Below are positions 51,374 through 60,430 of a DNA stretch of 64,000 nucleotides, in pieces. The DNA is taken from the NCBI GenBank assembly GCA_021772835.1, contig JAJFLE010000057.1:3177-67176 (forward strand), in the 5' to 3' direction. A model generated the notes under the pieces. It was not told the DNA's origin and did not search any database. It saw only the letters and a list, made by a program, of their open reading frames with translations. The translations under genes were made by a program, and so were the position numbers. The stretch is from Mariprofundus sp. (GTDB lineage Bacteria; Pseudomonadota; Zetaproteobacteria; Mariprofundales; Mariprofundaceae). The stretch's first letter is position 1. Every line of letters starts with the position of its first letter.

Positions 51374-52717
51374 TCAGCAGACTCTTTCTCTGATTGCCTC
51401 GGTTAACTGCCCACCAATATTGAGCATTATAGTCTCATCCTCAGCTTCAACCATCACTCTGATCTTCGGCTCTGTGCCTGACATGCGCACATTGATACGC
51501 CCACTTCCACCCAGATGCCGCTCAGCATCGCAGATAAGTTTCTGCACCTGCTCATCAGCCAACACATCCTTAGGCTCGCTCATCATGATATTCCATAACT
51601 TTTGCGGAAACAGCGACATGCCAGCAGCCATCTCTGCAAGAGCTTTATTCTGCTCCTGCATGGCCGTAAGTAACTGTAGCGCCGTCATCACCCCGTCTCC
51701 GGTTGTATTGTGGTCCAGTAAAATCATGTGCCCGGATTGTTCGCCACCAACATTACAGCCTGTCTCTCGCATCATTTCGAGCACGTAACGATCACCCACT
51801 GCAGCCCTGAACATGGAAAGCCCTATACCTTCCAGGTAACGCTCCAGCCCCATATTGCTCATCAGAGTCGTCACAACAGCTCCGCCCGTCAGCTGCCCCT
51901 TCTTGTGAGCATGTTCTGCCAAAATGGCAATCACACGGTCACCATCAACAATGCAACCCTGAGCATCGCAGGCGATCAGACGGTCAGCATCGCCATCGAA
52001 TGCCAGCCCGACATCCGCACCGACATCGACCACCTTCTGCATCATACTCTCCGGGTGGGTTGATCCGCATTCACGGTTAATATTAAATCCGTCCGGTTCG
52101 TCAAACATGGCAATCACATCACAACCAAGTTCGCGCAAAATACGCGGCCCAACGTCATAGGCTGCACCATTGGCACAGTCGACCACGACTTTCAAACCAT
52201 CGAGCCGCAAGCCTCGTGGCAACGAACCCTTTAAAAATTCTATATAGCGACCTCGTGCATCTTCAACGCGTGCCGCTTTACCGACCGCAAGGGCCGCTGG
52301 CAAAGGAGGAAGCTTATCCAGGCAGGCTTCTATCTCCAGCTCAATCTCATCCGCCAACTTGAAGCCATCGGCAGCAAAAAACTTGATGCCATTATCGCCT
52401 GCAGGATTGTGCGAGGCCGACAACATGACGCCTGCATCCGCCCGTAAGCTGCGAGTCAGGTATGCGACTGCGGGTGTAGGCACTGGCCCTACAAGCAACA
52501 CACTCATACCTTGTGCAGTTAATCCGGCACATAGAGCCGATTCGATCATATAGCCGGAAAGCCGTGTATCTTTACCGATCAGGATTCGGGGCTGATGATC
52601 CAGGTGCTGAGTCAGAACATGGCCAGCAGCACGCCCCAGAGCCAAAGAAAACTCTGCCGTCATCGGAAACTGATTGACCGGGCCACGCACGCCATCGGTG
52701 CCAAAATAACGTCTCAT
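51374..52717 (-). CDS. glmM: phosphoglucosamine mutase
   Basis: Carries MRRYFGTDGVRG...GVMLSASHNPAGDNGIKFF (phosphoserine loop)...FDGDADR. ATGA overlap with the upstream cdaR-like gene. Confidence 0.95.
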   Translation of the reverse strand: MRRYFGTDGVRGPVNQFPMTAEFSLALGRAAGHVLTQHLDHQPRILIGKDTRLSGYMIESALCAGLTAQGMSVLLVGPVPTPAVAYLTRSLRADAGVMLSASHNPAGDNGIKFFAADGFKLADEIELEIEACLDKLPPLPAALAVGKAARVEDARGRYIEFLKGSLPRGLRLDGLKVVVDCANGAAYDVGPRILRELGCDVIAMFDEPDGFNINRECGSTHPESMMQKVVDVGADVGLAFDGDADRLIACDAQGCIVDGDRVIAILAEHAHKKGQLTGGAVVTTLMSNMGLERYLEGIGLSMFRAAVGDRYVLEMMRETGCNVGGEQSGHMILLDHNTTGDGVMTALQLLTAMQEQNKALAEMAAGMSLFPQKLWNIMMSEPKDVLADEQVQKLICDAERHLGGSGRINVRMSGTEPKIRVMVEAEDETIMLNIGGQLTEAIRERVC

Positions 52718-53412
52718 TTCTGCTCTCCTCCACCCAAACCATCCGGTAAAACCGGTGCATCTGTTTGCACCAGCACACCACGCACATCAATTTTCACCTT
52801 GCCTTCAACCAGCCGAATCGCCTTGCCGGACGGACTTTCAACTCCAGAGCTCGCCTTAAAAGGACCCGCCTTCAAGGACGGACGAATCGGTGTGGTTTCT
52901 ACCTTTCTTAAGGTGTCCAGCCAGACTTCAGGCCCAATCAGGTGCACCTGTTGCGGCTCAACAGTGACGGAGGCTGCCTTCCAGCCTTCAGGTAGCTCAA
53001 AGTGTGCTTTCACAGGAATAGACCGGGTCACCAACCTGTCCACCTGCAGCTCCAGCCTGTCCGGCTGCACCTTCTCGATATGTAAACCGACAGGCAGAGA
53101 CACTGATGAAACTTGCAGCGCACGCTCAACCACACCTGGAGTGGTGATATCACTGACCATGATAGGCAGCGACATATCCTGTTGGTGCAGATCCTTCAAA
53201 CGTGATTGTAAGCCCGTCACCGTAACACGCACATGATCCGGCAAATCATTGACGATCACCATACCTGCTGGCAAACCCTGAATTTGCAATGGAACATCCA
53301 TACTCAAAGAACCTTCACCCTGGCCATGTACCTGCAACCACAGTGCAATGGCAATAATAATGGCCCAGATGTGCAGATTAAATTTTCGGAACTGACTGAC
53401 AAACAAGCGCAT
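52714..53412 (-). CDS. cdaR: YbbR-domain protein (CdaR-like regulator of diadenylate cyclase)
   Basis: N-terminal TM (HIWAIIIAIALWL) followed by repeated beta-rich YbbR-like modules (VPLQIQGLPAGMVIV...VRVTVTG..., IPVKAHFELPEGWKAASVTVEPQQVHLIGP). It is sandwiched between cdaA and glmM with 1-nt and 4-nt overlaps. Confidence 0.7.
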   Translation of the reverse strand: MRLFVSQFRKFNLHIWAIIIAIALWLQVHGQGEGSLSMDVPLQIQGLPAGMVIVNDLPDHVRVTVTGLQSRLKDLHQQDMSLPIMVSDITTPGVVERALQVSSVSLPVGLHIEKVQPDRLELQVDRLVTRSIPVKAHFELPEGWKAASVTVEPQQVHLIGPEVWLDTLRKVETTPIRPSLKAGPFKASSGVESPSGKAIRLVEGKVKIDVRGVLVQTDAPVLPDGLGGGEQK

Positions 53413-54209
53413 CAGACTTTGTCTGCCGTTTCAGCAGATTTCCCCTGTGAATAAAGCACGGATGACAGTGTTTTTTCCAGGGCCTGATGCAATTCCCGGC
53501 TGTTAAGCGACTCGCCCAATTGCCCCTCTTCAACCAGATGAACGTCACCCCGCTCTTCAGACACCACAATCACCAGCGCATCACTCTCTTCGGACAAGCC
53601 GACAGCGGCACGATGCCGTGTGCCGAAATTACCGGGGAGGGCCGTCACCTGAGCCAGAGGAAGCAACACACGTGCAGCGACAACTCGCCCTCCGCGAGCA
53701 TCCCGGCAAACAATAACCGCCCCATCATGCATAGGGGCATCAGGGCAAAATATGGCTTGTATGACATCCGGTCGAATGGGCGCATTCATTTCAACACCGG
53801 ATTCGAACAAGTGGCGCAGGCCAGTTTCACGTTCAATCACAATCAGGCCACCCCAACCACGGTGCACCAGAGAAAAAGCCGACTCTACCAATTCATCGAG
53901 CATGGCTACTGTTGGTGTAGTACCGGATGAAAGTGGATTGACCGCCACACGCACCAGAGCACGACGAATTTCCTGCTGAAAAAGTACAACCAGAATCACC
54001 ATAAAAGCGGAAAAGAAGTGCCCGAATATCCATTCAACCGTAAACAGACCAAACACCTGAGATAACTGATAAACAACCACAACCATGGCAACGCCAATCA
54101 ACATCTGCACTGCACGAGTGCCACGAATCAAGCGTAAAAAGAAATAGACCACGATGGCCACCACCGTGATGTCGAAGACATCAGAAAGTCCAAACTGCCA
54201 GCCGCTCAT
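53412..54209 (-). CDS. cdaA: membrane-anchored diadenylate cyclase (CdaA/DacA type)
   Basis: Three N-terminal TMs followed by a DAC domain: GWGGLIVIERETGL, MHDGAVIV (DGA motif) and GTRHRAAVGLSEESDALVIVVSEERG (RHR motif). Confidence 0.9.
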   Translation of the reverse strand: MSGWQFGLSDVFDITVVAIVVYFFLRLIRGTRAVQMLIGVAMVVVVYQLSQVFGLFTVEWIFGHFFSAFMVILVVLFQQEIRRALVRVAVNPLSSGTTPTVAMLDELVESAFSLVHRGWGGLIVIERETGLRHLFESGVEMNAPIRPDVIQAIFCPDAPMHDGAVIVCRDARGGRVVAARVLLPLAQVTALPGNFGTRHRAAVGLSEESDALVIVVSEERGDVHLVEEGQLGESLNSRELHQALEKTLSSVLYSQGKSAETADKV

Positions 54210-54276
54210 GAGTCTGCCTTCTTGTTCATCCCAGTAAGGGTAGTTCGATTAAGCACGCATGCAAGCACCAACATAT

Positions 54277-55095
54277 TCAGGACAGGGCTGATGCCACTTT
54301 AATCGCTCTTCGCTGCAACTTCACATCATGCACTCGCAGCACATCTGCTCCGTGTATAATGCCTGCAGCCCCGGCCACCGCCGTTTCAACTTCACGATCA
54401 TCAACAGTACATCCGGTAAGCAAACCGAGGAAAGATTTTCTCGAAACACCGAGCAGTACAGGCATGGAAAATCGATCTTTGAATTCAGCCAGCGACCGGA
54501 TCAGTGTCAGGTTATCTTCAAGTCGTTTACCAAAACCGATACCCGGATCAAGCAAGATTGAAGAAGCCTGAATACCCGCGGCCAAGGCCACATTGATTCT
54601 TTCTGCGAAAAAAGCTGCCACCTCCTCGATCACATCATCGTATTGCGGCCTGTGCTGCATAGTTTCTGGATTTCCCAGCATATGCATCAGGCACACATCG
54701 ACACCCGACCCGGCAACCACAGCAAGGCTTCCGGGGTCATGTGTGAGCGCGCTGACATCGTTCACCATCACCGCTCCGGCGGCAATCGCCTGCGCCATGA
54801 CTTCAGCCTTCATGGTATCAATGGATACGGCACAGCCATGTCTGCTCAGCTCACGCACTACAGGAATTACACGTCCCAGTTCATCGTCTACAGTTACTCT
54901 CGCAGCTCCCGGGCGGGTAGACTCCCCCCCCACATCCAGCAGACGGGCTCCATCATGCCACATGGAGAGACCGTGATTTACTGCAGCATCGACATCGACA
55001 AAACTACCGCCGTCCGAAAACGAGTCGGGGGTGCAATTAAGCACCCCCATAATCCACGCTTCACCATCAACCGGACGGTGCCACAGTGAAGGCAT
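54277..55095 (-). CDS. folP: dihydropteroate synthase
   Basis: Carries IMGVLNCTPDSFSDGG...LDVGGESTRPGA...SIDT...VNDVS...DPGIGFGK. Confidence 0.94.
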   Translation of the reverse strand: MPSLWHRPVDGEAWIMGVLNCTPDSFSDGGSFVDVDAAVNHGLSMWHDGARLLDVGGESTRPGAARVTVDDELGRVIPVVRELSRHGCAVSIDTMKAEVMAQAIAAGAVMVNDVSALTHDPGSLAVVAGSGVDVCLMHMLGNPETMQHRPQYDDVIEEVAAFFAERINVALAAGIQASSILLDPGIGFGKRLEDNLTLIRSLAEFKDRFSMPVLLGVSRKSFLGLLTGCTVDDREVETAVAGAAGIIHGADVLRVHDVKLQRRAIKVASALS

Positions 55096-57029
55096 CAGTG
55101 AACCTGCCCAGCCTCATCACCTGATGATTTTTCCTGTTCAGGCTCCTTGCCAACATCTACTTTTGCAGAAGGCTCTTCAGGCGGTCTTTTGCCAGGAGAT
55201 GCCGGTTTCTGCTCGAACTCCTTGATCAGCAACGGCTCCTTACCTTCCATCACACGATCAATATCGGTCGTGTCCAGCGTCTCATATTTGATCAACCCCT
55301 TTGCCAGCAGGTGCAACTGATCCATGTGCTCTATGAGAATATTCTTGGCACGGTCGTAGTTATCTTCAATCAGCTGGCGAACCACGACATCAATCTTGCG
55401 TGCTGTCTCTTCCGAGATATTGGTCTGACGGGTAATTTCACGACCCAGGAATGGCTCGTGCTCGCGTTCACCATATACCATAGGCCCCATCTCATCGGAC
55501 ATGCCCCACTGGGTCACCATGTTGCGCGCCAGTTGTGTCGCACGTTCGAAATCATTGGAAGCACCGGTCGTCATCTGCCCCAGCACCAGCTCTTCGCCGA
55601 GACGCCCACCCATCATGATAGATATCTGGTCACGCAGATATTCCTTATCATGATTGAATTTGTCTTCTGTCGGCATCTGCATGGTAATACCGAGGGCCTG
55701 ACCACGCGGAATAATACTCACCTTATGCACCGGATCTGCATTTTTCAGGTATTTAGCCACCAGCGTATGACCAGCTTCATGATATGCCGTAGTCTTCTTC
55801 TGATCATCGGAGATCAACATGGAACGACGCTCGGTACCCATCATCACCTTGTCTTTGGCCGTTTCAAAGTCGGCACGGCCCACCTTGTCACGATCGAAAC
55901 GGGCCGCATTCAGCGCCGCCTCATTGACCAGATTGGCCAGATCAGCGCCAGAGAAACCCGGCGTACCGCGTGCCAGCTCCTTGGTATCCACATCAGATGC
56001 CAATGGCACTTTACGCATGTGAACTTTCAGGATCTGATCGCGGCCCAACAGATCCGGACGCGGCACAGTGACCTGACGGTCAAAACGACCAGGGCGTAGC
56101 AAAGCCGGATCGAGCACATCGGGACGGTTGGTGGCAGCCACCAGAATGACGCCTTCATTGGATTCAAAACCATCCATTTCAACCAGCATCTGATTCAACG
56201 TCTGTTCGCGCTCATCGTTGCCGCCACCGATACCGGCGCCGCGATGACGCCCCATGGCATCAATTTCATCGACAAAGATAATGCATGGCGCATGTTTTTT
56301 GGCCTGTTCGAACATATCGCGCACACGCGATGCACCAACACCAACAAACATCTCCACAAAATCGGAACCGGAGATTGAATAAAACGGCACTTCCGCTTCC
56401 CCGGCAATGGCACGCGCCAACAGCGTTTTACCAGTACCCGGAGGGCCAACCAGCAAAACGCCTTTTGGAATTTTACCACCAAGGCGGGTAAACTTGGATG
56501 GATCACGAAGGAACTCGATGACCTCAGTTACCTCCTGCTTGGCCTCATCACATCCGGCCACATCTTCAAAGGTGACTCGCGCAGTATTCTCATTGAGCAA
56601 TTTGGCCTTACTCTTACCAAAGCCCATGGCACCACCTTTACCACCGCCCTGCATCTGGCGCATAAAGAATACCCACACGCCGATCAGCAGCAGCATTGGG
56701 AACCAGGAGATCAGTATGGAAAGAAGGAACGGCACTTCGTCCGCCTCTTTGACATTCACCACTACTTTATTATCCAGCAGACGCTGCGTCATGGACGGAT
56801 CATTCGGTACGTTGACATCGAAGTTCCTCAGATCACCGGATTTATCACGATATTGACCGATAACCTGCTTGTCTTTGATGGTTGCCGATTCAACCATGCC
56901 GTTATCCACCTTCTCGATAAAGGTGGAATAAGCCATTTTATCGGCCTTCGACATTGGTGCCGAAAACATATTAAACAGGCTCATCATGGTCAGGCCTATA
57001 ACCAGCCACAGCAGTAAATTCTTACCCAT
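55095..57029 (-). CDS. ftsH: ATP-dependent zinc metalloprotease FtsH
   Basis: Two N-terminal TMs, Walker [12 protein letters not shown], Walker B IIFVDEID, the SRH region and the zinc motif HEAGHT. 644 aa. Confidence 0.97.
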
Positions 57030-57141: not shown

Positions 57142-58113
57142 TCACCCGGCTCTGACAGTCTGCAGGTGCAGGCGCCCTTGAGCTCTATAGAGTCGGCAAC
57201 GGGACAAATCAAGTCCCCCCCGTGCCTTTTTCGACGTCCATGTTTCAACCAGTTCGATATGACGCCGCCCGGGAGTACTACCTTCGCCAAGCACGATAAC
57301 CATAATTTTCTGCAACACACGTGCCCGCACAGGCGGCGAGCTTGCACACCAGGCCTGCCAAGAGAGGGAGGCCACACCCTGTTCATGCAACAGATCATTT
57401 TCCAGCATTTTTTCCGCTGCCGTATCCAACCTGTCAGTAAGACAGTCAGCCTGAACTTTCCAGCGCAAAAACAGCTGGCGGGGCTGATATCCAGCCTGAT
57501 GCATGGCAGAAAAATCTCTCGCCCTTATCCGATTGCGCCACAAGCCTGAATCATCGTTGCTGGGATCTTCCAGCCATTCAACTTCAGCCTCTCTTAAAGC
57601 CTCTTTCAGCATGTTACCCTGCACATGCAACAGTGGGCGCAGCAATCTTAATGTTCCAAGCATACGTTCGTTATGCATGCCCCGGCAGCCTGCCGCCCCT
57701 GCCCCTTGCAGCATACGCATATAAACAGTCTCAGCCTGATCATCCAGATGATGACCCAGACACAAAACATTCACATCAAGCTCTTGTCCCCAGCGTGCAA
57801 ACTGCGCATAACGGCCAGCTCTGGCCTCAGCCTCCATATTCTTACCGGTTGGTTCATCCAGCCTGGTTGAATAAAACGGAATACCCCACTGCTCTGCTCT
57901 GTTCGCCAGCAGCGCGGTTTCATCATGGGAAAATGATCGCCATGCATGGTCCACATGCCAAGCCTGGAGCTGGCATCCAGTCGATTTCAGAGCCAGTAAC
58001 AAAGCGGTTGAATCAGCCCCGCCCGACCAGCCCACAGCCACCGTTTGTGAGGTCGTAAAAATAGTCTGACCATCCAGCCAGCCATTGAATATTTCAGATT
58101 GCATGTTTTGCAT
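57142..58113 (-). CDS. tilS: tRNA(Ile)-lysidine synthetase
   Basis: PP-loop VGWSGGADSTALLL, then GHHLDDQAET. 323 aa, a short form without the long C-terminal domain. Confidence 0.88.
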   Translation of the reverse strand: MQNMQSEIFNGWLDGQTIFTTSQTVAVGWSGGADSTALLLALKSTGCQLQAWHVDHAWRSFSHDETALLANRAEQWGIPFYSTRLDEPTGKNMEAEARAGRYAQFARWGQELDVNVLCLGHHLDDQAETVYMRMLQGAGAAGCRGMHNERMLGTLRLLRPLLHVQGNMLKEALREAEVEWLEDPSNDDSGLWRNRIRARDFSAMHQAGYQPRQLFLRWKVQADCLTDRLDTAAEKMLENDLLHEQGVASLSWQAWCASSPPVRARVLQKIMVIVLGEGSTPGRRHIELVETWTSKKARGGLDLSRCRLYRAQGRLHLQTVRAG

Positions 58114-60320
58114 CAGATCCAGCGAACCAGCCCATGATCAATAATATTTTGGGTTGCAACAGCATCTTCATCCAGCAGCTCGAACAGATCCACATCAAGA
58201 CCCGCCAGACACGGCTTACCGACCTTCATCAACACCCATGGCTTCTGCTTGTGCTCACCGTAGCGCTGAATCACGCATAGCTCCAGACCGCAAGCTGGCA
58301 AGCGGTAGCCATCGAGTACCCCGGCAATATCCCTCGGATTCGGGTGTATTTCCCGGATGGTCGCCTTGCCGGACAACACCGAGCTCAACTCTTGCCTGGC
58401 TGAAGCTGTCAGTGCGAAACCTGCATTATGCAACACCTGAACCTTGCCTCCGTCGCTACCCTGTACCGGCTCCACATTAACACCGCCAATCGGCTTCGGA
58501 GCATGCTTGCCAACACATGCGTTGATCAAACGCTCACCATTACTATCCCTGCATACGCCAGCCTCGACCTGAGGCACTGCCAGTGAAAAGACTATGCGCT
58601 GGACGCCGAGCCCTGCATGTTGATGCTCAGAAAATGCCCACTCTCCAGTCATATCCATACACATGGAAAGCTGCGGCAAATTCAGCTGCGCGATACTATC
58701 AGCTTCCTGCTTACACGCCTGCCGATACAGGTGATGCAAAGACTTGCGCATTGCGATGCCGGTTTCAGTTAATGATAACACCGAGCCACGCAACAGGCAG
58801 CCGGATGCTGAACAGCTATCAAGGAAAACATCTTTCTTTGCTTCGACAATAGACAACACATTCGGCAAAAATATCTTATCAAGAAATTCGGCCGCAGATG
58901 AGCCGGACAGGACATGCATTCTGGCCAGATAATCGGACCACTCGATACGCATGCAGCCATGCCGCTGCGACAGTGCCTTACCGCTATGCAGCGCTTTGCT
59001 CACATCAGGCTGAATCAGAACCAGATCTCCATTCTGCCATGCTGCCTCAAGATCATGGGCCACCTGAATATTCGCACCACTGCGCAAAGCACCTATGGCA
59101 CGCGTAACGGAAGCTGCCCCCGAAGTCTTATTCGCAACAGCGCTTTTATCTACCCAGAATATTTCGGCCTCACGTCTGGCTATTTCTACCCGTACATCTT
59201 CATCAAATACCCTGAAAGCAAGCAAGGTAATATTATCACGCAACCACGGCTCGCCTGCATTTTTTACAGCTTTACCACCAGCCAATTGCGCCAGCAGCCA
59301 TGCAGCGACCGGCTCATTGATATTGGCTTTCAGATTCTCGATAGAAGCAGCATCAGGTTGAACCTGCCCGGCTAATAGTTTGTCCAATTGTTTGGCATCG
59401 AGCACCCAGCGCATCCAGGCGCCATGCCCGGATTTCAAGGCAAGCTTCCATAGCGACAGTCGTGCCCAGCAACGCCGCAACAAATGTTGCCCCAGCTTAT
59501 CCTTTGCAAGCAGAGCCAGCATGCCACCTTCATTTTTAAAGCCGACCTTACTACGCAGATAACGCAACTGCGGCACGATCTCAGGCTCAAGCCCATAAAG
59601 CCGAATCAACTGGCTGTCATCAGCCAAAAGGTTCGATTCCGGCTGATGGTGCAAAAACACCATGGGGGTAACCGGCAACATCATTGATTCATAAGAGGCA
59701 ATGCGCGAAACCTCGACCACACCTTCCATGTATCGTTTAAGAAATTCCTGTAGAGCCCAAAGATACAAACCGCCAACCACACACAACATGACGTGGTTAC
59801 TGGTACCACTTTCTTCATTCGATAACGCAGCCATTCCATTTCTAATCATCTTCAACAGCAGCACATTCACAGCGGGCACCCAGGGGGCTGCATCCATCCG
59901 ATCCTGCTTCCAGCCCTGTTCCCACAATTTCTCGCAAACCTGCAGCAGAGCAGTGGCTCCTTTCGGGTCGGCACACCAGTGATGCAGCATATCTCGCGAC
60001 AGATGTGGATTTTGCTTGCGCAGGTATGTAACCATCGACCTGATGCGATCATCCATAACAGGCAGCACATGAGCGGAGACCTTCTCCCCTTTCACCATAT
60101 AACGAATGGCGTAATCCTGCAGTCGGTGCAGTGAACCCGAAATAGCCGTCTTGATTTCGGGATGAACGGCGTAGGGAATATATTCACAGGCGTCCTTTCC
60201 CGACACACGAATGGGCAAACGTCTCACATCAACCGCACAGCGATCGGACGGCTGTTCCTGTCGGTTCAGAACAGGGCTATACCAGCTCCAGCGAAATGAA
60301 AAATAGTCTGGTGAAATCAT
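58113..60320 (-). CDS. 735-aa soluble protein of unknown function, translationally coupled to tilS
   Basis: Long uninterrupted ORF on the strand of its neighbours. Its stop overlaps the tilS ATG (TGATG, 58115..58111). It has no TM segments or signal peptide, and I can assign no catalytic or binding motif by eye. Confidence 0.75.
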   Translation of the reverse strand: MISPDYFSFRWSWYSPVLNRQEQPSDRCAVDVRRLPIRVSGKDACEYIPYAVHPEIKTAISGSLHRLQDYAIRYMVKGEKVSAHVLPVMDDRIRSMVTYLRKQNPHLSRDMLHHWCADPKGATALLQVCEKLWEQGWKQDRMDAAPWVPAVNVLLLKMIRNGMAALSNEESGTSNHVMLCVVGGLYLWALQEFLKRYMEGVVEVSRIASYESMMLPVTPMVFLHHQPESNLLADDSQLIRLYGLEPEIVPQLRYLRSKVGFKNEGGMLALLAKDKLGQHLLRRCWARLSLWKLALKSGHGAWMRWVLDAKQLDKLLAGQVQPDAASIENLKANINEPVAAWLLAQLAGGKAVKNAGEPWLRDNITLLAFRVFDEDVRVEIARREAEIFWVDKSAVANKTSGAASVTRAIGALRSGANIQVAHDLEAAWQNGDLVLIQPDVSKALHSGKALSQRHGCMRIEWSDYLARMHVLSGSSAAEFLDKIFLPNVLSIVEAKKDVFLDSCSASGCLLRGSVLSLTETGIAMRKSLHHLYRQACKQEADSIAQLNLPQLSMCMDMTGEWAFSEHQHAGLGVQRIVFSLAVPQVEAGVCRDSNGERLINACVGKHAPKPIGGVNVEPVQGSDGGKVQVLHNAGFALTASARQELSSVLSGKATIREIHPNPRDIAGVLDGYRLPACGLELCVIQRYGEHKQKPWVLMKVGKPCLAGLDVDLFELLDEDAVATQNIIDHGLVRWI

Positions 60321-60430
60321 AGATTTGGCATGTTCCTTTCATTCCCTCTTTTAATCAAGTTGCGATAGCAACAACACGGCCAAACAAATCCATAGATGGA
60401 CTTTTCCGGTATCATGCTAGCATTGCCCGC

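Follow-up and report, generated by a model that had tools for sequence, protein, structure and literature searches.

The window analysed here is a 64,000-nucleotide stretch of contig JAJFLE010000057.1 from Mariprofundus sp. (assembly GCA_021772835.1), in which a large gene, here called gene X, lies on the minus strand directly ahead of tilS and ftsH. On balance, we favour the reading that X encodes a vertically inherited two-domain protein with a non-catalytic pseudo-cyclase domain, ligand-binding or regulatory in role, that is co-expressed with TilS and FtsH. The gene and the parts of its product are located as follows (positions are those of the window):

58113..60320, minus strand: gene X, encoding a 735-residue cytoplasmic protein, stop codon at 58113-58115; founding member of a family specific to Zetaproteobacteria
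59136..60320, minus strand: N-terminal all-alpha domain, residues 1-395 (AlphaFold2 models and conservation)
59034..59135, minus strand: interdomain linker, residues 396-429 (alignment columns 401-450)
58116..59033, minus strand: putative degenerate class III nucleotidyl-cyclase-homology domain, residues 430-735 (Foldseek and hhalign)

The initial annotation had described the product of X as a large cytoplasmic protein in which no motif could be assigned, and sequence searches bear this out. X has no match in NCBIfam, in PADLOC or among PDB sequences (phmmer), and nothing scores above the cut-off in Pfam, where the top match, Pyr_excise, has an E-value of 0.088, appears in 1/32 family members and was dismissed as chance. 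Nor does the family profile give anything significant against PDB sequences, the top match (Csm2, E=0.36) being again a chance one. The full-length AlphaFold2 model, computed from a 32-sequence alignment (predicted local distance difference test score, pLDDT, 84; predicted template modelling score, pTM, 0.61), consists of an all-helical region (residues 1 to about 395), a low-confidence linker and an alpha/beta region (about 430-735). In a Foldseek comparison with the PDB, all 50 matches listed are catalytic domains of class III adenylyl or guanylyl cyclases, most of them with a probability of 1.00 (e.g., CyaB, 3r5g; Rv1900c, 1ybt; Cya2, 2w01; CyaC, 1wc0; soluble guanylate cyclase, 3uvj; and the mammalian adenylyl cyclases AC5 and AC9). 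Among these listed matches the target-normalised template modelling score is 0.45-0.67 for isolated cyclase domains, at 6-14% identity. Because about 275 alignment columns are matched to targets of about 195 residues, the region is best seen as one cyclase domain with insertions, and indeed the C-terminal domain of X has about 300 residues and several insertions, compared with about 190 in canonical domains. The C-terminal domain of X is thus modelled with a class III cyclase-type fold, and it has the secondary-structure elements and motif positions of class III cyclases (PF00211) in the same order, i.e., the beta1 F-x-D, the GD of the beta2-beta3 hairpin, 'rIGIhtG', the N...R of alpha4 and 'KG...vyEL'. 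The initial annotation had ventured a vague likeness of this region to a nucleotidyl cyclase or GGDEF fold lacking the catalytic acidic residues. The cyclase half of that guess and the loss of the catalytic Asp residues hold, and the GGDEF half can be dropped: no GGDEF structure is among the 50 Foldseek matches listed, PF00990 gives no match, and the consensus of the family shows no GG(D/E)EF motif.

A second route to the cyclases runs through sequence profiles. Searched exhaustively with a hidden Markov model (HMM) of the family, 1.84 billion cluster representatives yielded 32 proteins, all of them members or fragments of the X family except two distant proteins, P0148 (762 residues, E=1.4e-7) and P0149 (834 residues, E=7e-5), both of which carry canonical-looking cyclase motifs. 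They belong to an outgroup family of 85 proteins of about 750-880 residues (P0148, P0149 and P0151-P0239; loci L005, L085 and L086), in which taxon names are mostly those of Myxococcota (Anaeromyxobacter, Myxococcales, Myxococcaceae) and source names include four of "class 3 adenylate cyclase" (JGI) and one of "nucleotidyl cyclase domain-containing protein" (NCBI). The C-terminal domains of the Zetaproteobacteria family and of the outgroup align over 308 columns with an hhalign probability of 98% (P=1.5e-13), and the outgroup aligns in turn with genuine cyclases over about 129 columns (P=5e-5 to 5.5e-5, probability 66-67%); the reference cyclase alignment used for this was built from genuine cyclase sequences of the PDB alignments, the bait consensus itself being excluded. 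Four motifs of outgroup and cyclases fall in register, namely FaDvkDFT with FsDi.GFT, GD with GD, GiFIsyG with rIGI.tG, and INESAR with VNlA.R. Predicted fold and transitive profile chain, which are in part independent of each other, both lead to the cyclases. Since both metal-binding Asp residues, the Asn and the Arg are present in 55/55 outgroup members, the outgroup family is probably an active cyclase. This family is the closest sequence relative of X, with a similar length, the same two-part layout and the common motifs YN-G-A-(T/S) and G...(F/L)-x-G...(W/F)-E-L; homology between the N-terminal domains of the two families is not significant (hhalign P=0.087). The outgroup is rare, patchy and without linkage to tilS, whereas X is found throughout one class. 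As a separate observation, outgroup members have an invariant Asn in place of the Lys/Glu substrate-specificity residue, and many contain a long coiled-coil-like insert; the outgroup appears to be a subclass of class III cyclases that has gone unrecognised.

Several results weigh against the cyclase assignment of X. The Foldseek E-values are modest (at least 1.3e-3), with root-mean-square deviations of 5-10 Å, and PF00211 matches neither X nor any of 32 members of its family, even at E<=1. A direct hhalign comparison of the Zetaproteobacteria C-terminal domain with cyclases is not significant (P=0.24), and a mixed alignment of Zetaproteobacteria and outgroup sequences reaches E=0.052. The link between outgroup and cyclases is the weaker one of the bridge (hhalign probability 66%), and outgroup members are themselves undetected by Pfam (including PF00211) and NCBIfam. 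Because the direct comparison fails, the cyclase assignment rests on the predicted structure and the transitive profile chain. As to expression, the runs that contain the X sequence are DNA metagenomes only. The modest structural scores and the failed direct profile comparisons would suit a cyclase-like fold that is an artefact of prediction, or a convergent ferredoxin-like arrangement, X then being an unrelated lineage-specific protein whose position next to tilS is a frozen accident. We regard this as very improbable, since the 50 matches listed all belong to one family and show no mix of ferredoxin-like folds, the independent sequence route reaches the cyclases with four motifs in register, and the names given to outgroup members by third parties agree. 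A frozen accident is also hard to square with the strong conservation of X and its class-wide synteny. The kinship to a characterised family that the initial annotation had named as counting against its reading is seen at the level of the fold only, the catalytic residues being missing.

The state of the catalytic site can be read at three places in X:

58941..58943, minus strand: E460, at the position of the first metal-binding Asp (beta1, F-x-D; MAFFT and hhalign agree)
58797..58811, minus strand: S504-A505-S506-G507-C508, beta2-beta3 hairpin, at the 'GD' site of the second metal-binding Asp
58557..58574, minus strand: P583-Q584-V-E-A587-G588, in place of N-x-x-x-R

Counted over the 124 full-length aligned members from Zetaproteobacteria, which is the sample for all residue counts given here, position 460 is Glu in 104 members, Asp in 10, Ala in 6, Gln in 2 and Ser in 2, and essentially no acidic residue occurs at any of the five positions 504-508. 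The transition-state Asn of alpha4 is replaced by Pro/Ala or Gln (583/584), the Arg by Ala/Ser or Gly (587/588), and the Lys of the final "KG" by Ala or Gly (position 706). The substrate-specifying pair of class III cyclases is Lys/Asp for ATP and of the Glu/Cys type for GTP; depending on the alignment, its Lys/Glu position maps to 502 (E42 N22 S19 A16 and others) or 503 (C88 L14 and others), neither of which is a conserved Lys or Glu. The MAFFT and hhalign mappings differ by one residue at two places, and the conclusion is the same under both: all four catalytic residues checked (two Asp, Asn and Arg) are replaced in the X family. Because the two metal-binding Asp residues and the Asn and Arg are replaced, and no residue is conserved at the specificity position, we infer that X almost certainly makes neither cAMP nor cGMP. 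Around these positions, W461, R511, G512, W561, N632, G634, G701 and E714 are invariant in the X family (124/124 each), and D501 (123/124), C508 (117/124), C554 (121/124), Q584 (113/124) and G588 (120/120+) nearly so. Since residues specific to X surround the catalytic positions and do not vary, the site appears to be remodelled under selection rather than decaying, and this strong purifying selection on a remodelled pocket makes a non-catalytic mode of action the most likely one.

A point on the other side is that acidic residues remain near the site (E460, D463 and D501), which leaves room for a different metal-dependent chemistry. X could then be an active enzyme whose palm domain still binds a nucleotide and, by means of these three residues together with the invariant R511 and R591 and perhaps C456, C508 and C554, carries out a nucleotidyl transfer, a hydrolysis or some metal-dependent reaction, perhaps one of use in the metabolism of tRNA or nucleotides. 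The near-invariance of the replacing residues (W461, R511, C508, Q584, G588 and D501) is typical of a functional pocket, and neighbouring gene products use nucleotides, TilS consuming ATP and CdaA synthesising c-di-AMP. Even so, an altered chemistry seems unlikely to us: whichever alignment frame is taken, the hairpin expected to hold the second metal ligand is free of acidic residues, position 460 is non-acidic in 10/124 members, which is hard to reconcile with an essential carboxylate, and we know of no enzyme of the cyclase/palm fold that works without the Asp pair.

A cyclase-type domain that has lost catalysis, as we favour for X, has counterparts in other systems. In the heterodimers of soluble guanylate cyclase and of mammalian adenylyl cyclase (C1/C2) the second site is degenerate and non-catalytic, and GGDEF domains that have degenerated act as nucleotide receptors. 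In these cases the fold is kept, catalysis is lost and the pocket is reused, and by analogy this is the mode of action that X might follow. The resemblance has its limits, because in these systems the degenerate half pairs with an active half or the ligand is known, whereas in X both the 'Asp' and the 'Asn/Arg' halves of the site are lost. Compared with class III cyclases, the cyclase-like domain of X is fused to a 395-residue helical domain and not to a known sensor domain (e.g., HAMP, GAF, PAS or CHASE). The fold class is already known; what is new is that the degenerate state extends through a whole class, that a helical domain is fused to it and that the gene keeps a fixed place before tilS.

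X had been called an orphan, a label that no longer applies, since it has a large conserved family in Zetaproteobacteria in addition to the distant, mostly Myxococcota-named relatives. Among 5.8 billion proteins, a word-indexed search retrieved 151 full-length homologues of 43-85% identity, all unannotated, and those that bear a taxon name are from Mariprofundus, Ghiorsea, Mariprofundaceae or "Zetaproteobacteria" only. In a scan of one genome per GTDB species, 100 genomes encode a relative of X; of the 79 loci retained, two carry only the label "proteobacterium", and the titles of all the others read Zetaproteobacteria, Mariprofundaceae, Mariprofundus or Ghiorsea. Poor conservation or frameshifts in close relatives, raised by the initial annotation as a sign of accidental coupling, are not what these loci show: the open reading frame (ORF) is intact in all 79, with internal stops in 0/79, and the alignment is conserved from end to end, with a mean column identity of 63% and many invariant Trp, His, Cys and Arg residues. 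The identity of X follows that of TilS across 71 loci (r=0.82; means of 52% and 51%) and also that of FtsH (r=0.88), a pattern expected of proteins inherited together vertically and not of a recent acquisition. X is a vertically inherited family present in every Zetaproteobacteria lineage sampled. An origin in a defence system or mobile element was considered and rejected on the grounds of the empty PADLOC search, the native composition, the class-wide synteny and the divergence that tracks TilS and FtsH. One family member, P0127 (968 residues), has an Arg-rich N-terminal extension of 263 residues, most likely a mis-called start in a high-GC metagenome-assembled genome (MAG) and not a real fusion.

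The ORF list places the ATG of X at 60320 on the minus strand and its TGA at 58113-58115. This start is well supported, because Met1 and the first ~20 residues are kept in 32/32 aligned homologues. Peak Kyte-Doolittle hydropathy is 1.44 in a 19-residue window, which indicates a protein without transmembrane segment, and the N-terminus, MISPDYFSFRWSWYSPVLNRQEQ, has no hydrophobic core and no signal-peptide character. The G+C fraction of the gene (0.518, against 0.511 for the window) gives it a composition like that of its neighbours. X goes unmentioned in the literature searched, including the Zetaproteobacteria pan-genome paper (PMC8250860).

Downstream, X is followed on the same strand by a string of housekeeping genes:

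57142..58113, minus strand: tilS, 323 residues, short form; its ATG shares base 58113 with the TGA of X
51374..57029, minus strand: co-oriented remainder of the string, ftsH-folP-cdaA-ybbR/cdaR-glmM, all confirmed by Pfam/NCBIfam and made up of the following five genes
55095-57029, minus strand: ftsH
54277-55095, minus strand: folP
53412-54209, minus strand: cdaA (TIGR00159)
52714-53412, minus strand: ybbR/cdaR
51374-52717, minus strand: glmM

The proposal of the initial annotation that X heads the tilS-ftsH-folP-cdaA-cdaR-glmM string and is translationally coupled to it holds in this window, where the stop of X and the start of tilS overlap by one base, 58113 (...GGATCTGATGCAAAAC...). Beyond the window it needs some qualification. 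Of the 79 GTDB loci, 76 extend far enough downstream to judge, and in 76/76 of them tilS follows X directly. Relative to the X stop, tilS is inferred to start at -16 to +74 nt, and about 40% of loci offer a start codon in overlap with that stop (NTGA or TGATG). In the loci examined, X and tilS are thus always adjacent, and coupling by overlap is common and not obligatory. The gene ftsH was detected in 68/79 loci, most of the remaining ones ending too early to show it. The order znuCBA <- -> X-tilS-ftsH-folP recurs in M. ferrinatatus, in a Ghiorsea MAG and in two further metagenome contigs. No terminator-like site was found at the X-tilS junction of the window, the scan for promoters and terminators yielding no more than shuffled controls. 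Three divergent Zetaproteobacteria loci (L072, L074 and L075) have tilS after X and no ftsH match in the ~3-4 kb beyond X; the tilS-ftsH link may be broken in this subclade.

Such a fixed neighbourhood invites the idea that X serves the short TilS as a specific accessory subunit, or FtsH as adaptor or regulator, in physical association with one or both; it might supply substrate recognition to TilS, or make lysidine synthesis or FtsH proteolysis responsive to a ligand. The invariable adjacency to tilS and the frequent overlap of stop and start would agree with this, as would the similar divergence of X and TilS and the fact that in the 323-residue TilS only the N-terminal PP-loop catalytic domain is recognised (TIGR02432, residues 25-198), no model of a TilS C-terminal domain being matched. 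We nevertheless hold this idea to be improbable. The support consists of gene order, and the start/stop overlap is missing in more than half of the relatives. The neighbourhoods of the outgroup relatives are unrelated to tilS and ftsH, P0149 lying beside argC/argB and P0148 beside accC-accB (where, as an aside, the start of the P0148 gene overlaps the accB stop). The N-terminal domain resembles neither the C-terminal domains of TilS nor any RNA-binding fold in the PDB (Foldseek), and the short TilS of other bacteria, e.g., Aquifex, is not known to need such a partner. More doubtful still is the strictest form of the idea, in which X would be an obligate, stoichiometric, ligand-sensing partner of the short TilS or of FtsH that gates the formation of lysidine on tRNA-Ile2 or FtsH proteolysis; if true, tRNA modification or housekeeping proteolysis would for the first time be seen to have recruited a pseudo-enzyme of cyclase fold.

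The N-terminal domain, when modelled alone, reaches a pLDDT of 79 and a pTM of 0.78 and has no fold relative in the PDB by Foldseek (best E=0.42, probability <=0.21, template modelling score <=0.28). Matches to helical-repeat proteins, terpene synthases and transporters, all with E-values of at least 0.42, were set aside as chance. Its invariant motifs include HHWC (59973-59984), APWVPAVN, NE(G/A)G and AFRVF(D/E)ED. The linker that follows is rich in Gly, Ser and Arg, falls below a pLDDT of 50 at residues 398-415, and varies in length between clades, being longer in some Mariprofundus members and short elsewhere.

For the pseudo-cyclase reading that we favour, the following course of events may be envisaged. 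Placed at the head of the tilS-ftsH-folP string, X would share a transcript with tilS and often be coupled to it in translation, and its product would probably be made together with TilS and FtsH, as gene order suggests. By analogy, the cyclase-like domain would bind either a partner protein or a small anionic ligand, and transmitting or anchoring its signal would fall to the helical domain. Class III cyclases form head-to-tail dimers with the active sites at the interface, and the cyclase-like domain of X is probably dimeric as well. More speculatively, and going by gene order, X may act on TilS or FtsH; if it does, two essential housekeeping enzymes would be subject to a further, hitherto unrecognised control.

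The Zetaproteobacteria are the main group of marine neutrophilic iron oxidisers, and their genetic manipulation is difficult, for which reason conserved but uncharacterised genes in their core operons are rare handles on lineage-specific biology. With X, what was a 735-residue "hypothetical protein" is now defined as a new helical domain joined to a domain of predicted cyclase fold without catalytic residues, and the short list of cyclase-fold pseudo-enzymes gains a candidate bacterial example that is conserved throughout a class. The active-looking outgroup sister family could serve as a natural control. Neither Pfam nor NCBIfam detects the two families, and annotation would therefore gain from a new family model.

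On the opposite side, X is divergently arranged with a zinc-uptake-type gene set:

60321..60430, no strand: intergenic region between X and znuA, with znuA-znuC-znuB on the plus strand from 60431

An RDD-family gene follows znuA, znuC and znuB, and znuA lies divergently upstream of X in 69/79 loci. A zinc-handling role for X, prompted by the znuACB neighbourhood and by the conserved C28, H84 and HHWC, found no support in fold or motif evidence. About 35 nt upstream of the X start, at 60351-60359 on the minus strand, lies the motif CTTGATTAA, which recurs in ~20 loci of the Mariprofundus clade. It is followed by a TATAAGG/TATGAGG-like element and then by AGGAAAC, and in this window a small palindrome, GTTGCTATCGCAAC, stands just upstream of it. 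Loci of the Ghiorsea clade have a different conserved pattern (TTGCAATTTACCA...) in the equivalent region. The elements around CTTGATTAA could be candidate promoter or regulator sites (Zur?) common to X and znuACB. A four-codon mini-ORF on the minus strand (ATG CCA AAT CTA TGA, 60318-60332) ends two bases into the ATG of X and is probably due to chance.

The far end of the string also departs from the usual order. The typical proteobacterial string is ftsH-folP-glmM, and here a Firmicute-style c-di-AMP module, cdaA-cdaR(YbbR), is located between folP and glmM (51374-54209 region, minus strand); its CdaA scores 186.1 bits, compared with a cut-off of 188.8 for TIGR00159. In a relative (L003, 14040-17794) the cdaA-cdaR slot is occupied instead by genes for LysR, DsrE, a solute-binding protein and DoxDA, and since its content differs in this way, the gap between folP and glmM looks like a variable insertion point.

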